Positions 6,072-52,569 of a stretch of DNA of 64,000 nucleotides are shown here, in pieces. Numbering within the stretch: the stretch's first letter is position 1; each line of letters begins with the position of its first letter. The notes below the pieces were generated by a model. The model did not search any database. It was not told where the DNA came from and worked only from the letters and a program-made list of their open reading frames with translations. Made by a program: the position numbers and the translations under genes. The stretch covers positions 1 to 64,000 of IMG/VR virus record IMGVR_UViG_3300031669_000007; one strand, given 5' to 3'. This DNA is from a virus.

Positions 6072-6138
6072 AACACTTCTCCTTTTTAAGATGCGAGTAG
6101 TATTTATCGGTTAATCCGACAGACACAACATCTTTTTC

Positions 6139-34875: not shown

Positions 34876-34884
34876 GTATTTATG

Positions 34885-35595: not shown

Positions 35596-35633
35596 GCATT
35601 AATTGTATAACAACATACCATCAAAAAGCAAGT

Positions 35634-36787: not shown

Positions 36788-36840
36788 GTTTGTGGTTTCC
36801 TATTAAAAACGCTTAATGTATTTATACTCAATTAAATAAT

Positions 36841-37347
36841 TTAAGAAAGTTTTCTAATTAATCGCTTCACCGCTGCAACATTGTTCTCTAAATCTTGTTT
36901 AATTAATCTAAGTTTACCTTTTGTTTCTTCATAGCGGCTTGAGTATAAGTCTATCTTAAATTGATCCTTGGCCGCATGAGCAGCATCTAATCTAACCCTG
37001 AATATAGACTTATCCAAGTCAAGTTTCCCTACATATAAATCTATTCTATATAATTCTTTTGCGGCATCTACTCTGCCCAAGTGCATTAAAGAACAATAGA
37101 AAATAGCACTTCTCTTATCAGTGAACTCTAACTCTTCTACACGCCAACATATATCTGACACCTTCTCTACTTTATATGTTGCAACGAGATAGTCTCCATT
37201 CTGAAGTAGCATACAGATGGGTAACTTGCTCTTTTTTTGAAGTTCTAGCAGTTCGTTTCTTGTCCACTCAGTTACGCGATGTAAGCCGTATGCCTCAATG
37301 ACGTCTAATTTTTTATCGGATTTTTTTAAGATAGATTGTTTTGCCAT
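36841..37347 (-). CDS. Hypothetical protein
   Basis: Long ORF in operon; start probably MAKQ. Confidence 0.6.
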   Translation of the reverse strand: MAKQSILKKSDKKLDVIEAYGLHRVTEWTRNELLELQKKSKLPICMLLQNGDYLVATYKVEKVSDICWRVEELEFTDKRSAIFYCSLMHLGRVDAAKELYRIDLYVGKLDLDKSIFRVRLDAAHAAKDQFKIDLYSSRYEETKGKLRLIKQDLENNVAAVKRLIRKLS

Positions 37348-37522
37348 CGTTTTTAGTTCTCTTAAGGACATCTTTCTTAACTAGGCTACTGGCAATTAGC
37401 TGTTCTCTTGGATTTAGACTCTTCTTAAATACTCCGCCTGTCTCATTAAATTTCGACAATACTTCCCATTCCTCATTATTAAGTGGTATAGAAATATTGT
37501 TTAATAACTCGACGATTTTAAT
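37313..37522 (-). CDS. 69-aa protein with apparent AUU start (absent from ORF track)
   Basis: ATT AAA ATC GTC GAG = (M)KIVELLNNISIPLNNEEW...; GGAG SD upstream. Confidence 0.6.
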   Translation of the reverse strand: MKIVELLNNISIPLNNEEWEVLSKFNETGGVFKKSLNPREQLIASSLVKKDVLKRTKNDGKTIYLKKIR

Positions 37523-38120
37523 TTTGTATCTCCCTGTTCTTTTTACGTTTAAGCCCTGTCCTAATTTTAACCCAGGCTTCTTTGCGTTCAGCCGACCATT
37601 TCTTGTCTGTCATTGCCTTAGCTATTTTCTTGCTTGTTTCTTTTAATTTAGGGCTCGTTTCTTTAGTAAGTCCGGTATTCCAGGACGTTGATACACCAAG
37701 CTCTTTTTTAAGTTTATTGTTCTTCTTTCTTGATTCATTCAGATTACGGGTATGTTCAGCAGTGCGTGGTTTATGATAAGCATGTTTACTGCATATTCTA
37801 CCCTTCTCGCCACCACCGTTTAATCCATTTTCAGGTCTTAAATTAGCCCAATTTTTTGATTCAACTATCTTTTCTTGTTCTGAAAAAATCTCAGCAAATT
37901 TTTTGCATTCTTCTTTATCATAAAATAAACAGAACCAAACTGTTTCAACATATTCTTTACCGTGTTTCATATTATGATTTTGCCAATATTTTCCAGATCC
38001 AAAATATGTAAGCATTTCTTCATAATTAGCAACCGTTTTGCCAAAATACAACTTGCCGGTTATGCGGTGTCTCTTTATATAAAGATATGTTGGTTTAAAC
38101 TCTCTCATGACTGTAGCCAA
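37518..38120 (-). CDS. Putative GIY-YIG-like homing endonuclease
   Basis: PTYLYIKRH..TGKLYFGKT, YFGSGKYW, WANLRPENGL, WNTGLTKE. Confidence 0.78.
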   Translation of the reverse strand: MATVMREFKPTYLYIKRHRITGKLYFGKTVANYEEMLTYFGSGKYWQNHNMKHGKEYVETVWFCLFYDKEECKKFAEIFSEQEKIVESKNWANLRPENGLNGGGEKGRICSKHAYHKPRTAEHTRNLNESRKKNNKLKKELGVSTSWNTGLTKETSPKLKETSKKIAKAMTDKKWSAERKEAWVKIRTGLKRKKNREIQN

Positions 38121-38539
38121 GGCTCGATAAAAATATTCTTAATGGCACCGTATGGGTGAAAGATGGGTAATATAAAACGTGCCGTCTCATCTAATCCAGT
38201 GATGACTGGCACTTGCTCAAAATCGGCATTTAGTGCAGACATTGGCTTGCCAGGCAAGTCATATACGCCCTCTGCTTCAATGGCCCAAGACCACTGCCAT
38301 ATAGTCTGGACTCCCGAGTAGAATTCTCCGAAATTATAAAAATCTACGTTGTCTTCGAATTTCTGCGGTAATTTGATATTCAAGGGTTGTGTTTTTAATC
38401 CAATACATTGTAGCACTGTTTCCCAGTTGCGCTGCTGGTTTCTTGCGATATCTTCTGTGTCAGAGCTTCGTGTTACTCCGGTAGCAGTTATATCTACTAA
38501 GGAATAGCCTATAAAGAATTGTGGATTCGCCGCGCTCAT
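38105..38539 (-). CDS. Late hypothetical protein
   Basis: TAAATA 4 nt upstream of ATG. Confidence 0.65.
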   Translation of the reverse strand: MSAANPQFFIGYSLVDITATGVTRSSDTEDIARNQQRNWETVLQCIGLKTQPLNIKLPQKFEDNVDFYNFGEFYSGVQTIWQWSWAIEAEGVYDLPGKPMSALNADFEQVPVITGLDETARFILPIFHPYGAIKNIFIEPWLQS

Positions 38540-38569
38540 ACAGTATTTAGCTTATGAAGTTATAGTCAC

Positions 38570-38601
38570 AAAAAAGCCAGGTCTGACCTGGCCTGGCTTT
38601 T
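38570..38601 (-). terminator. Rho-independent terminator
   Basis: AGCCAGG...CCTGGCT stem with T6 tail. Confidence 0.75.
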
Positions 38602-38624
38602 AATGTGTGGATTCTAATTAACTA

Positions 38625-39047
38625 TTAAGCTAACTTGAAACCTTCTGTGCTTGAAACTGTGAAACCTACTGGCACAATGTTAGCAACGTTTGCAGTTGTA
38701 GATAACACCGGCGAATTCAATGCTGTTGCAAGAGTTGTGTCAGTGAAGCCTGTTGCTTCAACTAACAAGCTGATTACTGAACCGTCAACTTGATACATAG
38801 TTGTTGTTGATTCAACACCAACTCTGCGTAGTGTTGATTCAACAACTCCGCCCACTCCCATTTCAACTGTCAAATCTACGTTTGAAGTAAGTTTGAAAGC
38901 TGTTGGGCTTTTTGTAAGACCAGGTGCAATGATAATTCCAACTGAATTATCACCTGTCATACCGATATCGAAGTTAACAACACCGTCTGCATCTCCGTGT
39001 ACTCTTGTTGCGCCTAATGGTTGATTATTGTTGATTGGTAATGCCAT
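38625..39047 (-). CDS. Putative abundant virion structural protein
   Basis: TATAAATA at 39094-39101, AGGAG SD, own terminator, T/G/V-rich. Confidence 0.55.
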   Translation of the reverse strand: MALPINNNQPLGATRVHGDADGVVNFDIGMTGDNSVGIIIAPGLTKSPTAFKLTSNVDLTVEMGVGGVVESTLRRVGVESTTTMYQVDGSVISLLVEATGFTDTTLATALNSPVLSTTANVANIVPVGFTVSSTEGFKLA

Positions 39048-39152
39048 AATATTTCTCCTAAAGTAAGTGGGATCTATACGATCCGCATATACTTATTTAT
39101 ACGAGTGGAGAAAAATCGTCGAATTTCGATCTGAAGATTTATCCAACTGCAT

Positions 39153-40412
39153 CTACTTTTTAATGACCTTACCGTCCTGTACGTATAGGAATCGTCTGAT
39201 CCATTCTGCGGTTGATTCTAGTATTTCTCTCTCATCCCTAGTGTAGAAGTGATCTGATGACATCATATGTACAATGACGTCGTCTATATCTTTAATCATT
39301 GGCACATCTTCCTCATCGTTCATATATATTATGGCTGCTTCTTTAAGCTTATCTACACCTGGGTTAATTGCATCTAATATCAGTTCATACTCTCTTTTTG
39401 CGTCGTCGTTATAATATAAATAACCAGGTGCATTTTCATAATCTACGTCACCGTTTTCGTCGACGAACCCTTCTTCCTGAAGCCAAGTATAATAATACTC
39501 GTCGTTCACTTCCCAGTCCGTCAGTCTATCGTCTGCTGACTCTGATGCATATTCACTGATCTGGTCAATGATCCTATTTAATACATTATCATATGCAAAT
39601 ATAATCATCTTAGAAAAATTAGGGTCAAACTGACGTAAGTTATTAATTAAATTACCAAAGCGTTTAGTTAATATATCAATTGGATCAACTGGCTCATCCT
39701 CTTCGTTCATAAACTGACCTGATGCAGCATGAACCTGATATTTTTCACCGTCGTATGCTGGCTGCTTAGGCAGAAGAATAAACATTGGTCCCTGGCGATT
39801 ATATCTGTCAAACATGTTATTATTCGTCGCTGCCGTGCACCAGGTTGTGCCCTGACCATAGTAGCAGGCTGCATCAGTATCTTCTGGCTGTACAATTCTG
39901 ACCGCTGCGTTACTATATATCTCTTTTGATTTGCCCTTAGGTATTGCTGTCTGAGCAGCGGTCTTTAGCTTATCTACTAATTCTGGTGTATGGGTAATCG
40001 TATATAGATCCTTAAAATTAATTCTATTTATGTCTCTGAGTTCGACCGGCAATATCTTTCTAAGTTTCATTTGTGCGAAGGTTTTGAGCCAGTCTGCGCC
40101 CTTTGATAATATGTCCTCTAGTGCCACGCCGCCGTTAGCATAAATTTTAGCCAGCCATGGTGTGTATTCTTTGTGTGTGGTAGGGTCTGCATTCTTCAAG
40201 AATTCAAGTATAAGATTTGAAATATGAGAAATAGTCTGCTGGTCGAGTTCTATTCCCTTCATGTCTGGTGATAGTAATAAAGATATCTGCCTATCTAAGG
40301 CAGGAGCAGGCATATTCCTTTCGTCTTTAAGCATGGCATTGACCAGTTTGCGCCCAAAGACCTGTATTGTCTTAGCTTGATTATATTCTACTAGAAATTC
40401 ATTGGCTCTCAT
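39153..40412 (-). CDS. CTS-tagged protein with PcfJ-like domain
   Basis: MRANEFLVE; ADPT..K.Y..W; AACYYGQGTTWCTAA; KYQ. Confidence 0.6.
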   Translation of the reverse strand: MRANEFLVEYNQAKTIQVFGRKLVNAMLKDERNMPAPALDRQISLLLSPDMKGIELDQQTISHISNLILEFLKNADPTTHKEYTPWLAKIYANGGVALEDILSKGADWLKTFAQMKLRKILPVELRDINRINFKDLYTITHTPELVDKLKTAAQTAIPKGKSKEIYSNAAVRIVQPEDTDAACYYGQGTTWCTAATNNNMFDRYNRQGPMFILLPKQPAYDGEKYQVHAASGQFMNEEDEPVDPIDILTKRFGNLINNLRQFDPNFSKMIIFAYDNVLNRIIDQISEYASESADDRLTDWEVNDEYYYTWLQEEGFVDENGDVDYENAPGYLYYNDDAKREYELILDAINPGVDKLKEAAIIYMNDEEDVPMIKDIDDVIVHMMSSDHFYTRDEREILESTAEWIRRFLYVQDGKVIKK

Positions 40413-40413
40413 C

Positions 40414-41064
40414 TTATGCAACCCATGGGTCGACGATCACCGGGAAGTCTGATCCTCTAGACATTACGTTGTCGTTATGTAAATCCCAATACCAGTTCTT
40501 CTTGTCGGATATATTGAATAAATCAAGTATAGTAGACAATAATAAAGCGGTCTTCTCACGTCCAAGATTCTTGGTTAATTGATTAAACCATTTTTCTCCA
40601 TCGTGCTCTGCCTCTGTGCCCAGTTCGTGAAACACATTTGATGCATTTAGTCTATGAGCTGACCAAGAAATATTTACGCCTGCTCTTGCGACTGCTAACC
40701 CAATGACATCATTTTCATTGAGTTTCTCCTGACGAATCTGTAGATATGGGTTACCATTGAACATAAAGCTCTCAAACCCATAGAACTTAGGTAGAAAAGG
40801 ATTGTTTTGTCTATCCATGCAATACTTGGCCCAGAAGAAGAACATTTTTTGCCCTTTAGTAAATTGCGGTTTTCCCGACGTCGTTAGACCTTTCCCAAAC
40901 TGAGTTCCAAATATCTTTAAGACTTGACCCGTGCTTGGTTCTAAGAATGCCATCTGATCGACTCCCTGACCCAACTTCTTATATCCTTTTGCCCTAAGAA
41001 TCTTAGTAATGTCTACGTGATTATCGCTATATTCATCTATTTGTTCTATTTCGATTATTTTCAT
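40414..41064 (-). CDS. Ser/Thr protein kinase-like protein
   Basis: LGQGV loop, VLK, LPKFY, QEKL, DLHNDNVM, IVDP. Confidence 0.78.
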   Translation of the reverse strand: MKIIEIEQIDEYSDNHVDITKILRAKGYKKLGQGVDQMAFLEPSTGQVLKIFGTQFGKGLTTSGKPQFTKGQKMFFFWAKYCMDRQNNPFLPKFYGFESFMFNGNPYLQIRQEKLNENDVIGLAVARAGVNISWSAHRLNASNVFHELGTEAEHDGEKWFNQLTKNLGREKTALLLSTILDLFNISDKKNWYWDLHNDNVMSRGSDFPVIVDPWVA

Positions 41065-41660
41065 CTTATTCTCTTTGTAGCAACTAGTTCCATATTTTTA
41101 GCATCTAATAGTTCGGGACTGTATTCTCCACCGTAATCCCAGGTATCTGTGTCTTTTGAATGAGTATATTCTGGATCGCGCATATCTACATTGACTGGCT
41201 TCCCGTTTAACCATCCGTGTATCTCAACATTTTTATGATACTTCTGTAGTTGTTTCCACACTGCGTGGCCACCAGGCGATTGGCTTGATGCAACTAATGT
41301 CTTCCCTAATTTAGTAATTAAAAAGGCATAGAAATTATGAGCCTTGAGTGTATTATTTTTATTAATAGCGTATAGACTTATATTCGTTAATATATTATTA
41401 TCTTCGTTTGCCCCAACTACTAAATCAACTTTTCCGTCTGGCGACACAGCATAATATCCATGCCAATCCCCGCCCTGAGGATCTTTCTCAAAATATACTT
41501 TGTGACCGTCTGGCATCTTAGCAATCTGAACACCGCCAATCTTTAGAAGTTGCTTTTCGTTAGATGGATCTTCCGGGTGCCATTTCCCCTTACGTTTAGT
41601 AATATAATCAAGCTCTTCAACCTCGTCAATTGTAGTCTGAATTACTTCATTGATTTTCAT
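41061..41660 (-). CDS. CTS-tagged GNAT-like protein
   Basis: MKINEVI; FYAFL...LVASSQSPGGHAVWKQL. Confidence 0.45.
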   Translation of the reverse strand: MKINEVIQTTIDEVEELDYITKRKGKWHPEDPSNEKQLLKIGGVQIAKMPDGHKVYFEKDPQGGDWHGYYAVSPDGKVDLVVGANEDNNILTNISLYAINKNNTLKAHNFYAFLITKLGKTLVASSQSPGGHAVWKQLQKYHKNVEIHGWLNGKPVNVDMRDPEYTHSKDTDTWDYGGEYSPELLDAKNMELVATKRIR

Positions 41661-43153
41661 AAATCTAATTCCCAATAGTTTCCGCTGTCATTATGATCAA
41701 CGGACTTAAATCCTGCTTTCTTAAACATATCTTTTGAACCCACATTAGTCCATTCCGTGTATGCCTTAACCGTGTAATAACCATGTGCTTTTGATTGCTC
41801 AACTATGTATTTAAGCAATTCTGAGCCAAACCCTTGTCCCGTAGGTGTTGCGTCTATGCGATTAATATATGCAATTCCAGAACTATTATCTAAATCTAAC
41901 GTGGCTGATCCGCGTTTTGCTTGTGTTTCGCCTATTCTATCAATCCAGTTCTTAGCTGAGTTTGTTATGTGTGCATTTAAGAATACTCTCAGATTCCAGT
42001 CGCCTTTCTCTTCTATGTCTAATCGTTCTGTTTCTGACGATTCTTTTATTGATATCGACTTAATTTTACGAACTATTTCCCAGGTGTTTAACCCCTCCGA
42101 TATTGTTAATTTAGATTTAAATTCAAATTCAGGAAAATACTTACTGATAGATTTGGCAAATCTATCATATAATTTATTTCGACTTGGTAAATCTATCTTA
42201 CTTGAAAAGTAAATAGCTCCTATAGATTTATTTTCTCTGTCAAAATCAACGAGAATCAATGATAATATTTCTTTAATAGTTGCAAAAATTCTAAATGCAT
42301 CCCCTGTATTTTCTATATCCTGACTCAAATCCGACTTTTCTTCTCCTTTAATCAATGAAAATAAAACATTGATTACATTCTCATTCCCTCTAAATTCTTT
42401 TGCATATTTGACGGTAACAAGATAAGCTAATCCCGAATCAGTCTTAAATTTATAAGATTTTTTCGGCATTAAAGAATCTGAGTTATTGCTGTATTCGGGG
42501 GAATACTTAAACGGATACGGAGCATCGGCTAACTCGGTTAGCATTTTATTATCTTCTAATACAGTAGATGACTCTGTAATCTTAAATTCTGATTTATACC
42601 ACAAGTAGATGTCTGCAGAAGAACAACGCTTGTCGAACTCTCTGCGTAAGATATAATAAATTTGCTGTTTATCTGCTCTCGATAAATCATCCCAGTTACC
42701 AATGTCGCGACGCAATTGCCTTAATAAGGAATTAGACGATAGCTTTAGATAATCTTCTAATCTCCAAAAGAATGTAACATCGTCGTTGTGAGATGATTTT
42801 GACTTAGTCTTAGATGCCAATACACCCAAGTATCTATTAATTTGGAATAACGGAATGCTCACGCCGATATGAGTTTTAATATCCTTCTTAAATGTGTCTT
42901 GGTTATTTAATACAGCAAGCAAATTGCCCAGGTCAGAGCCTGAATAATGCAGTTGATCATAGGTATTATATTTTAGTGTATCTCTTGCGTAATCTGCTGT
43001 ATAATTTGGTTTGTAATGTCTTATTACTTCTAACATCATAAACATCAAAAAGACTATCTGTGCTATTTCGTCAGCAGACATGCCTTTAATGTCCTTTACT
43101 CCATAAAACATGCGAGCTTCGACGAGAGAATCAATGAAAGGTAGTAGTGACAT
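41657..43153 (-). CDS. Multidomain putative internal virion protein with C-terminal GNAT
   Basis: RIDATPTGQGFGSELL and N..S..MFKKAGF; Glu-rich linkers. Confidence 0.65.
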   Translation of the reverse strand: MSLLPFIDSLVEARMFYGVKDIKGMSADEIAQIVFLMFMMLEVIRHYKPNYTADYARDTLKYNTYDQLHYSGSDLGNLLAVLNNQDTFKKDIKTHIGVSIPLFQINRYLGVLASKTKSKSSHNDDVTFFWRLEDYLKLSSNSLLRQLRRDIGNWDDLSRADKQQIYYILRREFDKRCSSADIYLWYKSEFKITESSTVLEDNKMLTELADAPYPFKYSPEYSNNSDSLMPKKSYKFKTDSGLAYLVTVKYAKEFRGNENVINVLFSLIKGEEKSDLSQDIENTGDAFRIFATIKEILSLILVDFDRENKSIGAIYFSSKIDLPSRNKLYDRFAKSISKYFPEFEFKSKLTISEGLNTWEIVRKIKSISIKESSETERLDIEEKGDWNLRVFLNAHITNSAKNWIDRIGETQAKRGSATLDLDNSSGIAYINRIDATPTGQGFGSELLKYIVEQSKAHGYYTVKAYTEWTNVGSKDMFKKAGFKSVDHNDSGNYWELDL

Positions 43154-43161
43154 CTATATCC

Positions 43162-43716
43162 TTATGGCATGTTGGGCCAAGTTAAGTTATTCTTGGTAAT
43201 ATTTTGTTTTGCTTCTAGTATCTGCAAATTCGCGAGACAGTGTAATCCTTGTACGAGCGGCGAGTTAAGTGGCACAATGTGATCTACGTGATAAGACACA
43301 CCTGTTAATTCAGTCAATGCTTTTGCTTGAGAATATAATGCCAAAATCTGATCTTTCTCGGCGATCGCCCATTGAGGTGTCGCCTGTAGCTTAGTTGCTC
43401 TTCTATTTGCGTTTTTTGCGTTGATCTTATCTGGATTGTTCTTTCTCCATTTTCTATTTGATTCTCTATGAAATTCTGGATTATTGCGCCTGAACTTATT
43501 CACTGATTCTTTGCTTCCTTCCGGATCTGCTATATATCTTTTATGAGCCGACTTCGTTTTATACAATGCAACCTTGTCTAAGTTGGCAGATTTCCATGCA
43601 TCGTTTTCAGTATTAATACAGATTTTGCATCTTGTCGTTAAGCCGCACTTATAGCCTTTATTTTTATAGAAAGAATCAAGCGATTTACTTTCGTTACATT
43701 TTGTGCATGTTTTCAT
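43162..43716 (-). CDS. HNH homing endonuclease
   Basis: CTKC/CKIC Zn finger; HVDHIVPL..GLHC..NLQIL...N..K. Confidence 0.88.
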   Translation of the reverse strand: MKTCTKCNESKSLDSFYKNKGYKCGLTTRCKICINTENDAWKSANLDKVALYKTKSAHKRYIADPEGSKESVNKFRRNNPEFHRESNRKWRKNNPDKINAKNANRRATKLQATPQWAIAEKDQILALYSQAKALTELTGVSYHVDHIVPLNSPLVQGLHCLANLQILEAKQNITKNNLTWPNMP

Positions 43717-43772
43717 AATAAGTATTTATCTTAGTGATGGCTCCAGTCTGGAGCAACATACGGTGTCTCTGG

Positions 43773-44549
43773 TCATGTAATAGGAGTGCCGCCAACGCGA
43801 AGTGTTTCTAATAGATCAGATCTAACTATAATACACGGTCCGCCTATCCACAATTCTTTATCTCGCATTCCACCGCCAGCAAATTCTTCTAAGTCATATA
43901 ATTGAAACCCGGTATTTTGTGGAGCCATTGCTTCTTCAATTTCTGGTAAAAAATCCTTAGGCTCAATTGGTTTAATTTTATTATCTTTAATTAAGTAGTT
44001 CAGTTCTCTCGCGAAGAAATCAGATTGAACTTCTTTAACCATTGAATTATAGTCCTGAGATAATCTCAGGTCTTCAAGAAATTCATTTAGGTCTGGAAAA
44101 TCAAGACCACTATAGACAAACGGTAGATCAATTCGTGTTTCCCATATATCAATGGCAGGACACACGGCAACCTTAACTCCTCTTGCTGGAAATACGGCAT
44201 AGGTTGCAGCCGACCACGGTGCTCCATGAGCATAATCAGATGCTCTGTCAAATTCAGTTGAACAAATTATGCTTCTACTTCTTTTTGGCCATCCATTGAA
44301 ATAAGGAGAATTATCCATTAATTCTGTGTAATAGTTAGATGTATTTTGTGATTGTCTAACGCCTGTGCTTGGATAAATCTTTAATATCTCCTGATTATGA
44401 TTGTTAAATCCGCGCCAGATAGGTTCTCTAATTAGTTCATCTACTACGGGGCAGAATTGCCTTAGTAATGTCTCTACCTTGTCGGTGTTGATTACTTCTT
44501 TTTCGTAAGGTTTAACCTCTGCTTCAGATATTATCTCATTGATTTTCAA
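43773..44549 (-). CDS. CTS-tagged ADP-ribosyltransferase-like protein 1
   Basis: MKINEIISE; IWRG...SIICST...A..Y...KELWI. Confidence 0.5.
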   Translation of the reverse strand: MKINEIISEAEVKPYEKEVINTDKVETLLRQFCPVVDELIREPIWRGFNNHNQEILKIYPSTGVRQSQNTSNYYTELMDNSPYFNGWPKRSRSIICSTEFDRASDYAHGAPWSAATYAVFPARGVKVAVCPAIDIWETRIDLPFVYSGLDFPDLNEFLEDLRLSQDYNSMVKEVQSDFFARELNYLIKDNKIKPIEPKDFLPEIEEAMAPQNTGFQLYDLEEFAGGGMRDKELWIGGPCIIVRSDLLETLRVGGTPIT

Positions 44550-45307
44550 AATGGGTCATCCTCTATTGAATCATTGTCATCGTCGGCAGTGTCGTTTGTA
44601 TATCCTACCGTGCTACCCGAGAAAGGATTATATCCGGCTGCAATAGAACTGCCATTGTCTTGAAGAGGATCAGTTAATACTAATTGTATGCCAGTTGGTC
44701 CAAGCCGAATCATTATATTCCCTGCGTGTACATCAGTGCTAAACGCTGAATTAGAGTTATATACTTCTTGAATTAACTGTATAGCTTGAATTAATTTTTC
44801 ATCACTGAAAATCTCGTACATATTAATGCTTGACTCAATTCCTTTTTCAATGTCACTTGAAATATTCCACAGTAATAATTCTCCTAGACGATGGTAGGCC
44901 AGAGCTTTCTCAGTGTAAATCTTTTCGGCTATTATCTCAACTAAGTTTTCTATCTCAGAGTTTGCTTCACTAATTGTCATTAGTTTTTCCATATTATAAG
45001 CTGGTTTAACTAATCCATCGCTATATCTTTTAAAGACAACTTCATAGACTCTTGGGAAATATGGGTTGCTTTTCATAAAAGGAGAACATGCTTTGATATA
45101 TTGATAATATGCATCGTTCTTTAGATTAGATGGCATTCTTATTTTCTTACGATACATGTGAGTATCAAGAGGATCTGGTGTCCCACGAGCATACGCCCCA
45201 CCATTTGTAGTGTCGATTTTTTGTCTTTGCCCCATCTTTTCAATGTTGTATGGTTTGCTTATCGGACGCTCGACATGTATTGGTTCTATTATCTCATTGA
45301 TTTTCAT
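44546..45307 (-). CDS. CTS-tagged protein kinase-like protein
   Basis: MKINEIIE; GGAYA, NPYFPRVY, MEKL, DVHAGNIM, LTDP. Confidence 0.72.
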   Translation of the reverse strand: MKINEIIEPIHVERPISKPYNIEKMGQRQKIDTTNGGAYARGTPDPLDTHMYRKKIRMPSNLKNDAYYQYIKACSPFMKSNPYFPRVYEVVFKRYSDGLVKPAYNMEKLMTISEANSEIENLVEIIAEKIYTEKALAYHRLGELLLWNISSDIEKGIESSINMYEIFSDEKLIQAIQLIQEVYNSNSAFSTDVHAGNIMIRLGPTGIQLVLTDPLQDNGSSIAAGYNPFSGSTVGYTNDTADDDNDSIEDDPF

Positions 45308-46432
45308 TTATGTATTCCTTGCGAAATTAGCCTGGCTAAATTGGGTGCGATTAACCAATTTAATTGGTCCTCCCTCGTCGCTAGATACATAGCCCTCACC
45401 GCCACGTGCGCCTGCAATGTGTGCGATAACTGTTCCTTCATGTGAATCTAATTGATGAAGTATATCTAATTTTAGTCCGGTAATTAAATCGAATATATTA
45501 AATACTGCCTGTAATCCTGCTGCGTTTTGTTCTGAATAGGCAATTACCTTACCGACCATTGCCTTAGATATCTTTGGGTTAGATTGAACCCAAGAACCGA
45601 ACTTAGCATATAGATTGGTTAAATCTCTTGTCTTAACCTGTGCATTGACGTATGTGTATAATAGATCAGGCAATGCTGCCATCTTTTGTTCACGCAATAC
45701 ATCTTCGTCAAGGAACGCATCTACCACTTTGGCATTCTTCTTAACGTATTGTGTGATCTGTTTGGCTTTTACTTTGTCTGCTTGAAGAGTAGCTTCGTTC
45801 TTAATCTCCGGGCCTAAGATGCATAATGGGCCATTGAGGTTTAGTCCTGCTGTATTCTTTAATGGAACACCGTCTGCACCCACGTCTGAATAAAAGGTGT
45901 GAACAGCCATCCCAGCTTTTGATTGAGCTATGTGATGTCCGAGTTCAGAGTTCTTATCTACTTCATACGTTACCGTATTAGGCGTAAAGATGAATCGCTT
46001 AGTTGTTTCTTTTAGTTCGCCAGGGAACCACATAATATCGCCAAACACAAAACCACGATAATTAGAAGGCACCGAAGCCTGAACGATAGGCCAGATTGCG
46101 ACGATTTTAGCGAGATAATCTTCATCTCCACCTTTGCTGCGCTTTTGCTTAACAAATTCTTTAGCTGATTTATATAGTCCATTGTATCCTTTCGCGCCAA
46201 ATCCCGCTTTGTCAGTGAAGATGAATTCTCCATCTTCATTACGACCGAATACACAACTTGGTTTTCCATCCCATTTGATTGACAAAATATCTTTACTCTT
46301 GCTTAGACTTAATAAGTTATTAACTGCTCTGAGAGCACCAGCAGATTTTTCCCAAAAAACTAAGTCCTCGGCGTGCTGAATGCGAGCACCCTCATTGAGA
46401 ACTGATTCTACTATTATTTCATTGATTTTCAT
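45308..46432 (-). CDS. CTS-tagged RNA-ligase-like nucleotidyltransferase
   Basis: MKINEIIVESVLNE; KWDG (motif I), GDI, GEGYV (IV), IKLV (V). Confidence 0.6.
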   Translation of the reverse strand: MKINEIIVESVLNEGARIQHAEDLVFWEKSAGALRAVNNLLSLSKSKDILSIKWDGKPSCVFGRNEDGEFIFTDKAGFGAKGYNGLYKSAKEFVKQKRSKGGDEDYLAKIVAIWPIVQASVPSNYRGFVFGDIMWFPGELKETTKRFIFTPNTVTYEVDKNSELGHHIAQSKAGMAVHTFYSDVGADGVPLKNTAGLNLNGPLCILGPEIKNEATLQADKVKAKQITQYVKKNAKVVDAFLDEDVLREQKMAALPDLLYTYVNAQVKTRDLTNLYAKFGSWVQSNPKISKAMVGKVIAYSEQNAAGLQAVFNIFDLITGLKLDILHQLDSHEGTVIAHIAGARGGEGYVSSDEGGPIKLVNRTQFSQANFARNT

Positions 46433-47174
46433 TTTTTAATCGTTCCTTTAGTAATGGCAACAATGTTTTTCTAAATTCATTCTCATTCATATGCCCTTTA
46501 ACAGTATTCACTATTCTAAGACAAAAGACTAAATTTTCTGCGGCGGCGGTTTTCTCAGTAGGCCAGTTATAAAAGAATGCTTCATTGACCGAAATCTTAT
46601 GATCGATTGTCCTCTTCAGCGGGTCATTTGGGTTGACTTTTTCTAATAAATTGTCATTGAATGCAATGTCGGTATAATAGCATGTGTTAGGTATTAGGTT
46701 AATTTTCTTAATTTTGTCAACCTGTTTTTTAGTCATTGACTCTACTTCTTTTCTATAATTATTAAATTCCTCATTGATTTTTAATTTTTTATAAGGTATT
46801 AAGTTTTGTTTCTTGAACCCTTCTCCGGGTCGTTGGCCATTATTAATAACGCCATATCGATTAAGCATTGATGCCTGCATTTTACTTTGTCTCTTATCAT
46901 TGGTGTTTTTACCGCTAATCCCTTCATAAACACCGCCCTTCTTCAAAATTTCTGTGATCAAATTTCGCAATTTCCCACCAAAAACTTTAGTGCTTTCTTT
47001 CTCAATAACATATTTACAACATTCAGAAACCGAATATGTCTCTAAGTAATACTTAGCTATATAATCATTGAGAACATCCTTTAATCGTAATACTTCCTTC
47101 TGATAATCAGAACAATTTCTAAAATGAGCCGTATTTCCCTTAGGTATCTCTAATCCACAAACACATTCACACAT
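46419..47174 (-). CDS. HNH-like homing endonuclease
   Basis: RYGV, CYYT, TIDHKIS..NLV....N..K; TAAATA at 47193-47198. Confidence 0.7.
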   Translation of the reverse strand: MCECVCGLEIPKGNTAHFRNCSDYQKEVLRLKDVLNDYIAKYYLETYSVSECCKYVIEKESTKVFGGKLRNLITEILKKGGVYEGISGKNTNDKRQSKMQASMLNRYGVINNGQRPGEGFKKQNLIPYKKLKINEEFNNYRKEVESMTKKQVDKIKKINLIPNTCYYTDIAFNDNLLEKVNPNDPLKRTIDHKISVNEAFFYNWPTEKTAAAENLVFCLRIVNTVKGHMNENEFRKTLLPLLKERLKNENQ

Positions 47175-47442
47175 AATAGTTCTCCTTACTATTATTTATG
47201 CTGGATAGCGTCTTATCTAATAGAAGTTCGTTAATCTTCATAACTTCCATCCTTTCTGAGATAGGTACAGTTAATAATATTTGTTCAACTTTCTCATAAT
47301 ACTGATATGCGTCCATAATTCTTGGAATGGCAATACCAACACCGAGAGATATAATACCGGCAGCGGCCAATTTAGCAACTTTTGCTTTAATACTTTCTTC
47401 AAGTATTTGTGATTCTGTTAATATAAATTCGCTTGATTTCAT
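47167..47442 (-). CDS. CTS-tagged small protein with hydrophobic helix
   Basis: MKSSEFILTESQILEES then LAAAGIISLGVGIAI. Confidence 0.55.
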   Translation of the reverse strand: MKSSEFILTESQILEESIKAKVAKLAAAGIISLGVGIAIPRIMDAYQYYEKVEQILLTVPISERMEVMKINELLLDKTLSSINNSKENYYV

Positions 47443-48197
47443 AATGTCCATCCCTCATTCTGATAATAGTGTTTAGCCAAAACAAGCCAATTTGAATTAA
47501 CCACTATTGCTTTGTCTGCTATTAGCATTATTTCGTGTGATGATCTAATGCCACCTATTAAATCTTTATTAAACTGATAATCACCGTCGATCATAAAATC
47601 ATTGACATAATTATAATTATCGAATACTTGTTTCATCTTTTCTTTTAAAGAAAAAGAACTAGCGTGTTCATCTCCGTCGCCAGCTGCATCAGTGAAGTGT
47701 TCCATACTTTCATACATATCGACATAATTTCTGGACCAGCAGAAGCTAAAATTACCCATTGGTATTACCACGACGGTATCACCGTATCCAGATGCCTTAG
47801 CTTCCTTACCAAAACAAAATAACGATTGGCGTCTAATTCTGATGTTTGTTCTTTCTTCAAACCAATCATCTATTGCTGCGCTAACATTCTTGGGTGTGTC
47901 TTTTGGGTTACGGTCTTTTCTGATGTTCACAGTGTTAAACGGATGCTCTTCTGGTATATCCATTGCCTGATGGTCAGGAATACCCACACCTCTGAATAAC
48001 GGGTAATTAAACAAAGCATTCTCGATGCCGCCGACCTGAGTCAGGTATGGTTGTGATGTTCTCGTCAGAAGAGCCGCTAACTCTGACAGCGACGATTTTA
48101 TTTTATTTACTTCATTTGCATCTGACCATTCGATATCATTCTCTATTTTTGCTGTGTCAGAATCAAGGTCTTCTAAGATTATGTCTTTAATTTTCAT
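47439..48197 (-). CDS. CTS-tagged ART-like protein 2
   Basis: MKIKDIILE; LFRG...RNPKDT...SLFC...A..YG...HEIML. Confidence 0.5.
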   Translation of the reverse strand: MKIKDIILEDLDSDTAKIENDIEWSDANEVNKIKSSLSELAALLTRTSQPYLTQVGGIENALFNYPLFRGVGIPDHQAMDIPEEHPFNTVNIRKDRNPKDTPKNVSAAIDDWFEERTNIRIRRQSLFCFGKEAKASGYGDTVVVIPMGNFSFCWSRNYVDMYESMEHFTDAAGDGDEHASSFSLKEKMKQVFDNYNYVNDFMIDGDYQFNKDLIGGIRSSHEIMLIADKAIVVNSNWLVLAKHYYQNEGWTL

Positions 48198-48862
48198 TCT
48201 GGCTCCACCAATTTCTTTAAGAATTTCTGTCGTATTACTAATGCCTTTTTACAGGAGAGCATTATTTCTGTCCCGGAAAATATCGCACCTCGAATATTGG
48301 TATCAAATCGATAATCTCCTGAATCCATAAATTCGTTTATTCTAGCTTTGTAAAACTGTTCTGCCTCATGCACAGACATGCCAGCACCTCCGTTGGGCGG
48401 CTTGTAGTTAAATTTGCCTAATGCAACAAATAAGTCTCTATACTGGGCAGAATATGCATAGTGGTATTCTCCCATTGGTATTACAATTAATGCACCGGTT
48501 GCCATTCCTGAATAAGAAATAGCGATATCAAATCGACCAGTGCAATGCAACGATGTCTGTCTAAATCTGACACCTACACGCTCTTGAAACCAGTCGTCAA
48601 TGAGAATCTGAACTCCTTCAGGGGTATCTGTCGGAATCCGATTTTGATTTACTATAACAGTTTTGGCGTGAGAACCAGGCGGAAATTCTATTTTCTCTAT
48701 TCCTCGATACATTGGATAGTCGATTATTGCAGCGTCGAATCCACCTATCTCTTGAAGATATGGTTGACATTGTTCTTCTGCGAACATTCTTATGCCAGCA
48801 AACTCTTTAAGAAGCTCTTTTTTAGTGTCACTGTCTTCAGTAATTATCTCTTGTATTTTCAC
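48194..48862 (-). CDS. CTS-tagged ART-like protein 3
   Basis: MKIQEIITE; MYRG...RIPTDT...SLHCT...A..Y...TEIML; clear paralogue of 47439. Confidence 0.5.
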   Translation of the reverse strand: MKIQEIITEDSDTKKELLKEFAGIRMFAEEQCQPYLQEIGGFDAAIIDYPMYRGIEKIEFPPGSHAKTVIVNQNRIPTDTPEGVQILIDDWFQERVGVRFRQTSLHCTGRFDIAISYSGMATGALIVIPMGEYHYAYSAQYRDLFVALGKFNYKPPNGGAGMSVHEAEQFYKARINEFMDSGDYRFDTNIRGAIFSGTEIMLSCKKALVIRQKFLKKLVEPE

Positions 48863-49620
48863 TTTGGGTTCACCATCTGAGATAACGATCTATACCAGGA
48901 TGGAGAACCTACTTGAATAGATTCTGGCAAGTTAATTAATCCCTTTTTGGCATCTTCTCTTGCCTGTGCTAGTTTTGCATCTCTAGCTGGGTCAGATGCC
49001 AATGCTTTCATTATTGTTTTAATGCTGGCCAGGTCTGCTGCTGTTGCCTTAGGATTAAGCAGTATCTTAGCCACAGAATCTTTGTCGTCTGCTACCACCA
49101 CGCCTGTCTCTCTGTTAACTAGCTTGCCCTCAAATGGGCTGAACTTTAAGCCTAATGATTTGGCAATGCTTGAATATAATATGAATAGCTGACCGCCCTT
49201 AAAGTCTGGATCATCGTATTGTCCTGACGGACCATGCTGATGGAACGGTGCGACTTTAGCTGCATTCGGAATGACCATAATATCTAGCTGAACAAACGTG
49301 CCATCTGGCACTGGCATACGAACGTGGACATTACGTCCCGACAATGCGACCTGAAACCCCTCTTTCTCAATGTATTGCTTTAATGCTAATTTAGTATATT
49401 TCTCGTCTGGTGTATTAAATAACTGTGCTAATTTACCGGCATCAACAAATACATCCATGTCACCTGACTCAACCTTATATCCAGCCGATCCGATATCTGG
49501 AATAATATTAATTCCAAATGGCATTATCTTCTGAATATCTTTAATTATTCCTGGGACATATTCTCTTTTAATTGGAGATACGTCAGGAAATACATTTCCG
49601 CCTTCATTTAATTGATGCAT
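48859..49620 (-). CDS. Pol-beta superfamily nucleotidyltransferase
   Basis: LNEGG; GSAG...SGDMDV; VQLDIM. Confidence 0.75.
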   Translation of the reverse strand: MHQLNEGGNVFPDVSPIKREYVPGIIKDIQKIMPFGINIIPDIGSAGYKVESGDMDVFVDAGKLAQLFNTPDEKYTKLALKQYIEKEGFQVALSGRNVHVRMPVPDGTFVQLDIMVIPNAAKVAPFHQHGPSGQYDDPDFKGGQLFILYSSIAKSLGLKFSPFEGKLVNRETGVVVADDKDSVAKILLNPKATAADLASIKTIMKALASDPARDAKLAQAREDAKKGLINLPESIQVGSPSWYRSLSQMVNPK

Positions 49621-49621
49621 A

Positions 49622-50605
49622 TTAATTCCTTTTAGCTTTACCGCCATATGTTGGAGCTAACACCTGGTTCAACGTTGGCTTGTCCTTAGGCAGTGGATCA
49701 TTGACTGTTTTGTGCCATTCTTTGCCGGTTCTCGGCGTATCTAAGCTATTTTTCTTCTTTTTATTTTTTGCTTCTTCTAACTTCTCTTTCTTTAAGCGTC
49801 TGACAGCCATCTCCTTAACTGTGTATTCATTGATCAGCTTTTTAGCTTTGTTAATTGATTCGGTCATTTCTAGTTCCTCGTTATTTGTGCTGCGATTACC
49901 GACTATGCGGTTATACAGATCTGGCCGTACTCCGACTTTATCAGTGTGCTGTTTTGTTGCCTTAGCATAATAGTTGCCGGCCAAGTTCTTAGATATTTCA
50001 TTGACTTGTGATTCTTCGGTTGGCTGCGGTTCTTGCTTAGGCCGTCTATTAGCTCTAGCTTGCATTCTTCTTTGATAGCTAGGAGCCATTTTGTAAGGAG
50101 TTTGTGGAGATGGTGGAGCAGGAATAAACGTTCCTGTCTGATTGTCGGCCATTTTCTCTAATGCCTGAACTTGTGTAGGATCGACAATTTTTTGATTTAA
50201 TTCATTGACCCAACCTGCATTAGTTTTATAATATTTTCCCTTACTTCTAGGGTCAATGATCATAAACTTTTCCCCTGGCCTTAGAGCAGGCTCCTTCTGA
50301 GGCGTCTGAGACGTCTGACCTTGAGTAGGCATATTTGATGCTCTATTTGGGTTTGGTTTTACTTGCATCTGAGCTTGGCTTCTGGCTTGCGTAACTTCTT
50401 GGCGTTTTTGTTGAAAGTTTTTTTCTGCTTGATGACTTAAACTATGCTCTAAGTCGTGGGCGCCTAACCCCCTTGCCAGACCAGAATAGGCATTAGCGTT
50501 TCTATCAATGTGGCTACTAGCTGCGGCAGCGGCGTTAGCTGCACCCTTCTTAATAGCGTCCCATATTCCTTCGTCTAACTCACTGCTAAATTCATTGATC
50601 TTCAT
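49622..50605 (-). CDS. CTS-tagged low-complexity protein
   Basis: MKINEFSSELDEG; internal VNE, MTE, INE, LEE. Confidence 0.55.
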   Translation of the reverse strand: MKINEFSSELDEGIWDAIKKGAANAAAAASSHIDRNANAYSGLARGLGAHDLEHSLSHQAEKNFQQKRQEVTQARSQAQMQVKPNPNRASNMPTQGQTSQTPQKEPALRPGEKFMIIDPRSKGKYYKTNAGWVNELNQKIVDPTQVQALEKMADNQTGTFIPAPPSPQTPYKMAPSYQRRMQARANRRPKQEPQPTEESQVNEISKNLAGNYYAKATKQHTDKVGVRPDLYNRIVGNRSTNNEELEMTESINKAKKLINEYTVKEMAVRRLKKEKLEEAKNKKKKNSLDTPRTGKEWHKTVNDPLPKDKPTLNQVLAPTYGGKAKRN

Positions 50606-50846
50606 TCTTGTTCACTCTCCTGACTCCCCGGGCGAACTTTGATGTGTCTTGTGCTCTGATGCTATTAAGTAATCTACGCTCTAAGTCAGCGGCTGTTTCG
50701 GGGTCATAGTTCTCCCGTATCAAATTGATTAAATTAATTGCACCCTGAATAATGTGCGTGGCGCGGCTTTCTAGTAGTTTTTCTCTATCTCGATGGACTA
50801 ATAGACTATCGAGCTCATCTAAGATGCTTTTTGTTTGTTTTTTCAC
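50592..50846 (-). CDS. Late hypothetical protein, first gene of cassette
   Basis: GTG start, GAGG SD, TAAATA at 50875-50880. Confidence 0.65.
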   Translation of the reverse strand: MKKQTKSILDELDSLLVHRDREKLLESRATHIIQGAINLINLIRENYDPETAADLERRLLNSIRAQDTSKFARGVRRVNKNEDQ

Positions 50847-50897
50847 AAGAAATGCCTCTCCCCTGGGGTTATTGTATTTATTCGGAATTGTGAATGG

Positions 50898-51135: not shown

Positions 51136-52569
51136 TTATTTCTTAGCTCCTAATCCTGATATCATTGATTTAAGTCTGGCGGCATTAATTTCTCCTGCTC
51201 CCTTACCTGTAATCTCTGCCTCAGTCTGACTTACTGCGGTTGTGGTTGTTGATTTTGGCTTAATCTTACTCAGGATACTATTTGCTACTGATGGTGGTAT
51301 TCCCGAATCTTCCTCGCCAGTTCCGGCATCTACAATACGCAAGCTGTCTACATTAAAGTCTAATTCCACCTTGGTGCCGATACCAGAGCTTGAACGAGTT
51401 TTCAACAGTTGAAGTTGATACTTGCCGCGCTCTCGCATTGCGCGGGACGTAAAGATACCAAACACGTTATCTGCTGTGTTGATCTTGCTAATACCGCCTG
51501 AAATGTGACTGTGGTCAAATTCAACTTCATCTACTGCTGATCTATTTAACTGTGATGCTGTAATGAATAAAATATTTAATTCCCTAGCCAAGTTACGCAA
51601 TTCTTCTGAAACATACTTATCCTTGACGAATAAGTCGTTCGGGCTAACCTTGGCTGATACTGGCATCAGCAGATCCAAATAATCCACCATTAAGAAATCT
51701 ACCTTCTTTCCAGTCTGAATCTGAAACTCTCTAATATAAGCACGAATATCGTTTACGTTAGATTGCGCTGGCATATATTTAATTTGAAATGCTCCAGACT
51801 TCTTAGCTGCCATTCGAACCTTAAGTTCTACGTCGTCTAGGTTCTTAAATAGCTCACGTGTGCTTACGTTTGCAATCATTGAATCGATACGCATTGAACA
51901 TAGGCCCTCGCTTAATTCTAATGTTAAATAGATACCATTTAATCCCGCCGTAATCCAGTTTACGGATATATTTTGCATGAATAATGATTTACCTGAGCCA
52001 GATCCTCCCGCAAAGATGTTTAGCTCGCCTCTATTCATACCGCCAAATAATGCTTTATCCAATGCTGGCCAACCTGTGCTAAATTGCCCGTTGCCTGACT
52101 TAATTGCCATAAGCCGCGCTCTTGGGTCTGCAAAGTAATCAGTTCCAATATCCTTAACAAGTCCAATTTGAACTGCATCTTTAATTAACTTCTCAATTGG
52201 TGCGCGATTGCCTTTCTCTAAGTAGTCTGCTGCCTTTAATATGGCGCGTTCTAATGCTTTACTCTGACTAAATCCCTCAAACTCTTCTAAGAACCAATCA
52301 GTGTGTTCTTCTGTCAGATCCTTTGTCGGTTTAAGCGTTGTGCCAACCGACGCGTTAATTTGCTCGATTGTTGGCATTGCTTTATATTTCTCTGTGTGCT
52401 CTTTAATGAATGTTGCCGCTGGCTGCAATGAACGAGCAAAGTTCTTTGAATCAAATATATTCTGCACCCTGACATATGATTCGGGGTGGTCTAACATTAT
52501 TTCTAAGAATAGTTTCTGTAGGTCGTCGGTATATTCTTTTGCTTGTGTTTTTTCTTCTTTATTATACAT
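51136..52569 (-). CDS. Replicative helicase (DnaB/gp41-like)
   Basis: GGSGSGKS, TLELSE, VDYLDL, TASQLNR, KTR. Confidence 0.93.
   Translation of the reverse strand: MYNKEEKTQAKEYTDDLQKLFLEIMLDHPESYVRVQNIFDSKNFARSLQPAATFIKEHTEKYKAMPTIEQINASVGTTLKPTKDLTEEHTDWFLEEFEGFSQSKALERAILKAADYLEKGNRAPIEKLIKDAVQIGLVKDIGTDYFADPRARLMAIKSGNGQFSTGWPALDKALFGGMNRGELNIFAGGSGSGKSLFMQNISVNWITAGLNGIYLTLELSEGLCSMRIDSMIANVSTRELFKNLDDVELKVRMAAKKSGAFQIKYMPAQSNVNDIRAYIREFQIQTGKKVDFLMVDYLDLLMPVSAKVSPNDLFVKDKYVSEELRNLARELNILFITASQLNRSAVDEVEFDHSHISGGISKINTADNVFGIFTSRAMRERGKYQLQLLKTRSSSGIGTKVELDFNVDSLRIVDAGTGEEDSGIPPSVANSILSKIKPKSTTTTAVSQTEAEITGKGAGEINAARLKSMISGLGAKK

Follow-up and report, generated by a model that had tools for sequence, protein, structure and literature searches.

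A shared N-terminal peptide on a cassette of enzyme-like proteins as a probable capsid-targeting tag in an uncultured jumbo phage

The principle of capsid targeting in bacteriophage T4 has been known since the 1990s, and Mullaney and Black reportedly worked on the capsid-targeting sequence (CTS) that underlies it. The T4 CTS, MKTYQEFIAE, is carried by the internal proteins (IPs) IPI, IPII and IPIII and removed by the prohead protease gp21 (PMC9026906; PMC3012670). In this sequence targeting is governed by residues 4 and 7 and processing by residues 8 and 10, with gp21 cleavage following L/I-x-E (PMC9026906); T4 reviews suggest that T4-like phages can package a variety of proteins by means of the CTS (PMC9026906; PMC3012670). 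Here we describe a peptide of this kind in the IMG/VR contig IMGVR_UViG_3300031669_000007 (92.6 kb, CheckV completeness 26%), the first 64 kb of which form the stretch analysed in detail, hereafter the window. Twelve to thirteen minus-strand genes of this contig start with M-[KR]-(I/L)-x-(E/D)-Φ-Φ-x-E (Φ, hydrophobic residue); all of them lie within 34303–50605 and none elsewhere in the contig. We argue that this shared start, the tag, is probably a T4-type capsid-targeting propeptide.

Judging from its helicase, which is 49–51% identical to the helicases of Pseudomonas phage PA5oct and Agrobacterium phage Atu_ph07, the source phage is an uncultured member of the PA5oct/Atu_ph07 clade of jumbo phages in the T4 superfamily. 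The clade has been named group 2.2 (PMC7824862), and the genomes of PA5oct (287 kb) and Atu_ph07 (490 kb) served for comparison. The cassette of tagged genes has no megablast match in 50,697 phage records. In IMG/VR a related helicase occurs in 587 stretches, 80 loci of which were fetched, and 59 of these contain a small gene, the anchor gene, that precedes the tagged cassette in every case.

The likeness to T4 is manifold. A peptide of about ten residues stands at the extreme N-terminus of unrelated proteins, the cargo is variable and fast-evolving, and residues 3–9 of the window tag (Φ-x-E-Φ-Φ-x-E) have the spacing of T4 residues 4–10 (Y-Q-E-F-I-A-E) and end in (I/L)-x-E; moreover, the clade has a gp21-family protease, and tag-bearing proteins of relatives are found in virions. 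The consensus here (MKINEIIxE) is nevertheless one residue shorter and lineage-specific (MRWEQLTE in Atu_ph07). Whereas T4 has three IPs, 12–15 cargo genes lie here in one operon-like cassette beside replisome genes, and the cargo is mostly enzyme-like, with sizes of 20–55 kDa, rather than made up of small inhibitor proteins; cleavage and injection are proposed for it by analogy. A second parallel is the T4 protein Alt, a head-packaged and injected ADP-ribosyltransferase (ART), along with other packaged phage ARTs (PMC9503650), in that ART-like enzymes occur in myovirus virions and are predicted to act early. However, the ART-like family of this clade has no sequence match to Alt/VIP2 or to a Pfam ART and gives low-Z fold matches only, and its members are proteins of about 220–260 aa with a short tag, unlike the MuF fusions or polyvalent proteins that many packaged ARTs are (PMC9503650). 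The inner-body proteins of phiKZ-like phages and SPN3US are likewise cut after Glu by a diverged gp21 homologue (the gp175/gp245 proteases) and ejected, but cleavage occurs at S/A/G-x-E and not at hydrophobic-x-E, the relevant parts of the two papers mention no short N-terminal tag on many proteins (PMC9026906; PMC10052503), and these phages form a separate clade with a virion RNA polymerase. The mechanism considered here is the known T4 CTS/internal-protein principle, expanded in a new lineage, and packaged phage ARTs are already an established idea; the present case adds scale, a cargo of enzymatic nature, a new lineage and a tie to published virion proteomes. No description of the tag in PA5oct/Atu_ph07/RaK2-like or jumbo phages was found in the open-access literature, and a term search of PMC6102473, which reports Atu_ph07, finds neither 'N-terminal' nor 'paralog', so the paper apparently leaves the shared start undiscussed.

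The tag and its confinement to one module

A six-frame scan of the whole contig with the pattern M[KRQH][ILVATS]x[ED][IFVL] in open reading frames (ORFs) of at least 50 aa returned 14 matches, of which 12 lie on the minus strand within the same interval. A sequence-only reading of the window had listed eleven matching N-termini between 39153 and 50880, and all eleven are present at minus-strand starts (Table 1, where the higher coordinate of a minus-strand gene is its start). It had also described a tightly coupled run of genes with different bodies; indeed, most tagged starts overlap or abut the preceding stop codon, as expected for translational coupling, and the bodies share no BLASTP similarity with one another, except for three ART-like paralogues. 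The two HNH/EndoVII-type genes inserted in the cassette lack the tag, again as described. Two of the four outliers named in that reading, MRSIEFISE (start 34872) and MKIREIVFE (start 36056), are real tag members, and the other two had to be dropped: MQLSEI at 26620 belongs to a plus-strand ATPase-like ORF and fits the tag poorly, and KIVE at 37522 is internal to a GIY-YIG homing-endonuclease gene. The ATPase-like ORF (26620–27075, plus strand, 151 aa) is a lone plus-strand ORF in a gap between minus-strand genes, with weak PHROG ATPase matches (E 3e-5).

The list of members can in turn be extended by the gene starting at 36787 with MKLTDM. The 498-aa GNAT protein, which had been omitted, has a conserved leader of its own, MSLLPFIDSLVE-A; its N-terminal domain is kept in 15 relatives with the leader ending in L-x-E in all, as in MFDFIQELNE-S or MFEFLKEELTE-A. 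Over window and relatives together the consensus becomes M-[KR]-(I/L/V)-x-E-(I/L/F)-(I/L/V)-x-E. The sequence [ILV]-x-E ends exactly at residue 9 in 6 of 11 window tags, 20 of 66 tags of relatives and 42 of 100 tags of ART-family homologues, compared with 7 of 849 untagged ORFs. The tag is disordered in both AlphaFold2 (AF2) models that were considered, over residues 1–12 of the 47439–48197 product and residues 1–16 of the 45308–46432 product.

The uncultured relatives show a contrast between the two sides of the anchor gene. Upstream of the anchor gene none of 589 ORFs carries the tag, whereas downstream of it 80 of 332 do (Fisher 4e-39). As the upstream ORFs around helicase and primase are mostly unannotated, the contrast is one of position, and by position the motif is not, as the sequence-only reading had allowed for, equally common in early non-virion genes. 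The tagged bodies of the relatives fall into about 30 BLAST families and their tags into 62 distinct peptide variants. Tag identity is 0.34 between different body families of the same genome, 0.27 between different families of different genomes and 0.38 between orthologues in different genomes; the higher value within than between genomes for different families suggests genome-specific tag flavours, in a comparison of pairs that are non-independent. The cassette ranges from one or two tagged genes to at least ten (e.g. loci L013 and L022), and that of the window is an expanded version.

Matching starts might in principle be a property of the DNA or mRNA, namely a translation-initiation region rich in A/U, or a hot spot of recombination at which neighbouring genes copy one another's 5' ends. 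The codons are A/T-rich, translation of the genes is coupled, their Shine-Dalgarno sequences are weak, and four tags (46432, 45307, 44549 and 41660) are nearly identical in DNA and share ATGAAAATCAATGA(A/G)(A/G)TAAT, all of which would suit such an explanation. Yet the residues are kept with differing codons within the window (I3 as ATC, ATA or ATT; E5 as GAA or GAG; I6/I7 as ATA, ATT, ATC, TTT, CTA or GTA) and through the many peptide variants of the relatives, while Atu_ph07 has a different peptide, MRWEQLTE, in several codon sets. Furthermore, neither the remaining ~130 genes of the contig nor the upstream ORFs of the relatives carry the motif, Glu5 and Glu9 have no obvious role in an mRNA, and virion association would be left unexplained. 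An origin in DNA or mRNA is therefore highly improbable as the cause of the shared start.

Tagged proteins in the virions of cultured relatives

Downstream of its helicase Atu_ph07 carries the same module, in which gp53–gp63 all start with MRWEQLTE, MKWHQLTE or MRLFQLLE. This is a lineage-specific version of the tag, and it likewise ends in L-x-E. A degenerate DNA pattern for M-x-W-x-[QED]-L-x-E gave 13 matches in the full 490-kb genome, compared with none for a control pattern, and all 13 are starts of coding sequences (CDS), namely gp53–62 and the dispersed gp381, gp408 and gp482. Genes were tied to Table S5 of PMC6102473 by calculated mass to two decimals (gp381 20.00, gp408 30.60 and gp482 31.68 kDa). 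Every one of the 13 tagged proteins, plus gp63, is in the virion proteome determined by tandem mass spectrometry after electrospray ionisation (ESI-MS/MS; Table S5, PMC6102473), with 2–31 unique peptides and, for the tagged proteins, 12–46% coverage. Given a background of 131 detected among 714 proteins, the probability of finding 13 of 13 by chance is ~3e-10, and that of finding the three dispersed ones alone is ~0.006. Two dispersed genes, gp408 and gp482, each adjoin the gene of another virion protein with a tag-like start (303755–305556 and 349666–351388 of Atu_ph07): gp407 beside gp408 has an internal MKLINLLE, and gp483 beside gp482 starts MLLSELF, in what appear to be small satellite cargo pairs outside the main cassette.

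In PA5oct the looser pattern [MV]-[KR]-Φ-x-[ED]-Φ yields 12 matches, compared with two for the control. Seven of the 12 are annotated CDS starts, and five of these seven (gp333, gp309, gp279, gp246 and gp104) are structural proteins by ESI-MS/MS, which has a binomial P of ~0.005 given a background of 93/461 (PMC7318152). The gene of the 73-aa gp333 (MKINDIITE) has the portal gene on one side and the head-maturation protease region on the other, and small ORFs at the equivalent position of two uncultured relatives start MLLNEFL and (M)YVKDFIKE; use of the tag thus extends to the head-core gene block.

Since tagged proteins are present in two published virion proteomes of relatives, a gp21-family protease exists in the clade and the tag is absent upstream of the anchor gene, packaging of tagged proteins into the virion is well supported. 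The protease family, Peptidase_S77 (that of T4 gp21), scores above the cut-off in four of the five relatives searched, namely in PA5oct, in Atu_ph07 and, among three larger uncultured relatives, in two (one of them a 289-kb IMG/VR contig). The gp21-like protease is PQE65_gp331 in PA5oct and gp204 in Atu_ph07. The sequence-only reading had gone further and proposed a modular tag-plus-cargo system that loads enzymes into the head for injection, host takeover or anti-defence. Of this, virion association (by mass spectrometry of relatives) and a module-restricted tag hold, while head location, removal of the tag, injection and the role in takeover or anti-defence have their basis in the analogy with T4.

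From that analogy we infer head location, core binding, cleavage, ejection and a role in the host. The first ~9 residues, M-[KR]-(I/L)-x-E-Φ-Φ-x-E, would bind the cargo to the scaffolding core of the assembling prohead, and the gp21-family prohead protease would cut after Glu5 and/or Glu9, both of which stand in (I/L/V)-x-E sites. The freed enzyme would then stay beside the DNA in the head, and the next infection would deliver the two together. The cargo handled in this manner would comprise three ART-like, two kinase-like and two or three GNAT-type proteins, one RNA-ligase-like and one Pol-beta-nucleotidyltransferase-like protein, and several proteins of unknown function.

The tag could alternatively be a docking or assembly signal for the tail, baseplate, whiskers or an assembly chaperone, in which case the proteins would be virion-borne but neither stored in the head nor injected. 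Virion mass spectrometry places the tagged proteins in the particle only, structural proteins that lack the tag are scattered through the module as well, and the authors of PMC6102473 tied the many unknown proteins of Atu_ph07 CDS 31–76 to its unusual, whiskered morphology. Such a signal is nonetheless unlikely, as the bodies resemble soluble enzymes for intracellular substrates (RNA-ligase-, nucleotidyltransferase-, kinase- and ART-like proteins and GNAT), the tag ends in a gp21 cleavage motif with the spacing of the T4 CTS, and in PA5oct it occurs on a small gene of the head-core block, between portal and head protease. It is still less probable that the tag is an N-terminal degradation or regulation signal, for instance for ClpXP, that limits toxic enzymes, the virion detections being carry-over. 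ART-like and kinase-like cargo could certainly be toxic, Atu_ph07 encodes ClpX according to Table S1 of PMC6102473, and its virion preparation was purified with polyethylene glycol (PEG). Detection of all 13 tagged proteins with up to 31 peptides would, however, be odd for short-lived proteins, and the tag co-occurs with head-core genes.

Several points weigh against a capsid-targeting function of the tag. The virion data come from relatives only, the source phage being known from its sequence, and virion mass spectrometry tells neither the position of a protein within the particle nor whether its N-terminus has been removed. The methods description in PMC6102473 has the Atu_ph07 virions PEG-purified and not gradient-purified, and the virion table also lists a few obvious non-structural proteins, with one peptide each; co-purification of abundant late proteins is therefore possible. 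The untagged Atu_ph07 neighbours gp64, gp65 and gp50 are in virions as well, which makes the tag not the sole route into the particle, and in PA5oct the small tagged CDS gp408 and gp103 were not detected in virions. Part of the similarity among the tags is recent copying, given that four of those in the window are nearly identical in DNA. As the eleven members of the Atu_ph07 cassette are all of one ART-like superfamily, paralogy could account for part of the likeness of their starts, a view that is weakened by the three dispersed Atu_ph07 genes and by the unrelated bodies in the window. Lastly, the search for a gp21-like protease that the sequence-only reading had called for found no Peptidase_S77 in the contig itself, which is 26% complete.

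Gene order, cargo enzymes and transcription signals

The module and its neighbourhood are listed in Table 1; almost all genes of the window are on the minus strand. The anchor protein is 44% identical to PA5oct gp259 and 36% identical to Atu_ph07 gp68, which is in the virion table with 5 peptides. In relatives the 327-aa low-complexity protein that follows it starts MKVNEIV..EGFWD or MKINEIV..EGFWD, and in two loci (L003 and L017) it is fused to the nucleotidyltransferase (NTase)-like protein. A single frameshifted gene joining 50605 and 49647, as these fusions might indicate, was rejected. We treat the two as coupled genes because they are separate in most relatives and because the ATG of the NTase-like gene at 49620 lies 1 nt past the previous stop, behind AAGGA.

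Table 1. Features of the tagged module and its surroundings (pLDDT, predicted local distance difference test score)
Coordinates	Strand	N-terminus	Feature	Match or remark
51136–52569			DnaB-type helicase	
50592–50846	-	GTG start	Anchor gene, small conserved virion structural protein, 84 aa	phrog_11854 'virion structural protein', E 9e-17
49622–50605	-	MKINEFSSE	Tagged, 327 aa, Ala/Gly/Gln/Lys-rich, low-complexity	Always first tagged gene after anchor
48859–49620	-	MHQLNE-GGNVF (short L-x-E leader)	Pol-beta-type NTase-like	Invariant GSAG..K..S.D.D in alignment
48194–48862	-	MKIQEIITE (GTG)	Tagged, ART-like paralogue 1	phrog_11975, E 1e-24; 31% identical to 47439–48197
47439–48197	-	MKIKDIILE	Tagged, ART-like paralogue 2	phrog_11975, E 8e-29; AF2 pLDDT 85
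47167–47442	-	MKSSEFILTE	Tagged, 91 aa, hydrophobic segment	No family match in Pfam/PHROG searches
46419–47174	-	Untagged	HNH/EndoVII-type endonuclease insert	phrog_1035, E 9e-6; own ATAAATA box at 47199
45308–46432	-	MKINEIIVE	Tagged, DUF6267, RNA-ligase-like nucleotidyltransferase	Pfam DUF6267, E 9e-37
44546–45307	-	MKINEIIE	Tagged, protein-kinase-like	phrog_15752 (T7 gp0.7-type protein kinase), E 8e-7
43773–44549	-	MKINEIISE (TTG)	Tagged, ART-like subfamily B	phrog_12810, E 2e-25; 36% identical to Atu_ph07 virion protein gp58
43162–43716	-	Untagged	HNH endonuclease insert	phrog_1035, E 3e-24; own ATAAATA box at 43729
41657–43153	-	Variant leader MSLLPFIDSLVE-A	498 aa, conserved N-domain and C-terminal GNAT acetyltransferase	
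41061–41660	-	MKINEVI	Tagged, 199 aa, GNAT-like (lead only)	ESM Atlas clusters
40414–41064	-	MKIIEIE	Tagged, protein-kinase-like	phrog_15752, E 6e-7
39153–40412	-	MRANEFLVE	Tagged, 419 aa	Matches only uncharacterised PHROGs and viral-only Atlas clusters
38625–39047	-	Untagged	Conserved virion protein	Own ATAAATA box at 39100; strong terminator at 38574–38594
36056–36787	-	MKLTDM (short, tag-like)	Virion structural protein	phrog_14154 'virion structural protein', E 3e-11
35634–36056	-	MKIREIVFE	Tagged, acidic, 140 aa	Relatives start MRIREVIVE, MRIRDIILE
34303–34872	-	MRSIEFISE	Tagged, 189 aa, weakly GNAT-like	ATAAATA box at 34883

Counterparts in the two cultured phages can be named for much of the module. 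The NTase-like protein, which in relatives starts M-x-L-x-E-GGNVF, is 29% identical to PA5oct gp253 (structural by ESI-MS/MS), and Atu_ph07 gp65 is in the virion table. The three ART-like paralogues are homologous to Atu_ph07 virion proteins of gp53–63 (gp54, gp57 and gp60–63 in the case of the 47439–48197 product), and the 498-aa GNAT protein is 25% identical to the virion protein gp64. Beyond the cassette proper, the protein encoded by 38625–39047, the homologues of which start MA.VTRVHG in 14 relatives, is by position and N-terminal motif the counterpart of Atu_ph07 gp50 (7 peptides, 57% coverage) and of PA5oct gp250/251 (ESI-MS/MS), although BLASTP finds no match to these at E 1e-3. The product of 36056–36787 starts MRLTEM, MKLNEF or MKLQEL in relatives and is 33% identical to PA5oct gp247 (ESI-MS/MS), and that of 35634–36056 is the positional counterpart of PA5oct gp246 (VKIKDILVE, ESI-MS/MS).

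Pfam leaves eight of the ten main cassette proteins unnamed, and the enzyme names given in the sequence-only reading fared unequally: GNAT scores above the Pfam cut-off, and the ligase-, NTase-, kinase- and ART-like labels are backed by motifs and weak matches only. The label RNA-ligase-like for the DUF6267 protein is supported by K53-W-D55-G56, E346-G347 and K358, invariant in 14 sequences, which correspond to ligase motif I (KxDG, where the lysine is the nucleophile), motif IV (EG) and motif V (K). Its AF2 model (pLDDT 88) has RNA or DNA ligases as all 12 best VIA-align matches, over 163–197 residues with Z 5.2–6.4, below the caution line of 8, and Foldseek gives no significant match of the model in the PDB. 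The untagged Atu_ph07 gp66, with KLDG near its start, was considered as an untagged DUF6267 orthologue and discarded after hhalign showed no relation; it is the only gene of gp53–69 missing from the virion table. The NTase-like label is likewise supported, by the Pol-beta signature GSxG...SxDxD and a weak PDB profile match to the terminal uridylyltransferase Tailor (E 0.6); no PDB profile match of the ART-like, DUF6267 or NTase alignment had an E better than 0.36. The NTase-like and DUF6267 proteins are encoded by separate genes in the window but are fused into proteins of ~620 aa (ORFs of 600–657 aa) in many relatives (loci L027, L030, L035, L060, L062–L064, L069 and L079), which suggests that the two work together, possibly as an RNA end-repair pair.

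The kinase-like label is supported by the phrog_15752 matches and by motifs in the translations, among them the catalytic-loop motif D-x-H-x-x-N: D-V-H-x-G-N (DVHAGN) and T-D-P in 44546–45307, and GQGxxxxAF..VLK, D-L-H-N-D-N (DLHNDN) and V-D-P in 40414–41064, neither of which has a Pfam match. The GNAT label is supported for the 498-aa protein, where Pfam Acetyltransf_1 reaches 25.1 bits (cut-off 20.7); 34303–34872 stays just under the same cut-off (19.5 bits, E 0.0013), and 41061–41660 has no Pfam match but falls in with viral N-acetyltransferase clusters of the ESM Atlas (feature score 0.93–0.94, template-modelling (TM) score 0.60–0.69). In the ART-like proteins R69 (Y/W-R-G), R122 and E222 are invariant in 17 sequences, with the Ser after R122 kept in most. 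They have no Pfam or PDB sequence match, Alt/VIP2 included. The AF2 model of the 47439–48197 product has nothing significant by Foldseek in the PDB, and VIA-align brings up Arr, exotoxin A, cholix toxin, DarT, PARPs and diphtheria toxin at low Z (2.8–4.3), with the uncharacterised 2aua on top (Z 5.5). With the conserved R/S/E set on one side and fold matches of low Z only on the other, the label ART-like is moderately supported.

The ART-like family is large in metagenomes, with 8,034 representative clusters in an exhaustive HMMER search (a word-index search found only 4 relatives), and the tag is present on 100 of the best 150 family representatives. A second leader, M-x-x-F-K-Q-F-L-x-E, is common among the homologues (P0052, P0060, P0065, P0078, P0083, P0093, P0143, P0150 and others) and is closer to T4 MKTYQEFIAE than the MKINEII type is, a hint that CTS variants grade into one another among the phages of the T4 superfamily. 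The best profile match, P0006, has 2645 aa and five matched stretches, of which 1724–1898 scores highest; it may be a polyvalent-protein-like giant with the same domain.

The box that the sequence-only reading had placed at 50875 is confirmed as a minus-strand ATAAATA at 50875–50881, 28 nt ahead of the anchor gene's GTG. There are 22 minus-strand copies in the contig, 14 of them within 46 nt upstream of a start codon, and the genes so preceded include three for virion proteins (two of these by the boxes at 39100 and 36825), both HNH genes (47199 and 43729) and one tagged gene (34883). The start-proximal copies, often (g)tATAAATAc and 4–46 nt upstream of the start codon, are those at 6107, 17370, 19584, 30222, 34883, 36825, 39100, 43729, 47199, 50881, 55769, 63042, 68360 and 69427; several leave almost no room for a leader or Shine-Dalgarno sequence. 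The late promoter of T4 is TATAAATA. On account of the likeness to it, ATAAATA is a candidate late-type promoter of the clade, and together with the gp55-like factor reported for Atu_ph07 (PMC6102473) this makes late transcription of the cassette plausible. In the earlier description of the cassette as late, the box is thus real and the timing is deduced from the box only. Between 50846 and 39153 the minus strand has no strong terminator; at 38574–38594 on that strand there is a strong hairpin like that of an intrinsic terminator (9 bp, 5 GC, then a T-run), directly after the gene 38625–39047 for an abundant virion protein.

The region is heavily colonised by mobile endonucleases, as judged from the two HNH genes in the cassette and three GIY-YIG-type homing-endonuclease-like genes on the minus strand (37518–38120, 29546–30193 and 14838–15602), which have the common start (F)KPTYLYIK(R/Q)H.

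Implications for the clade

The idea that the tag is a capsid-targeting propeptide is directly testable in the cultured phages PA5oct and Atu_ph07, whose virion spectra exist already. If the tag acts like the T4 CTS, one short sequence rule identifies which proteins are packaged, and probably injected, in a large and mostly uncultured group of giant phages. Candidate enzymes for host takeover and anti-defence, acting ahead of transcription, could then be listed at once, and a natural address label would be at hand with which foreign proteins could be loaded into jumbo-phage heads. More tentatively, and as a possibility that we hold somewhat short of even, the whole PA5oct/Atu_ph07/RaK2-like clade, and probably more phages of the T4 superfamily, may have a head-loaded and ejected set of proteins that can be read from a nine-residue address. 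Such phages would deliver, before any of their own genes are expressed, a large and fast-turning-over arsenal, including a Pol-beta NTase and RNA-ligase-like RNA-repair pair that could restore tRNA or mRNA after cleavage by defence nucleases of the host, and ART-like, kinase-like and acetyltransferase enzymes that would rewire the proteins of the host.

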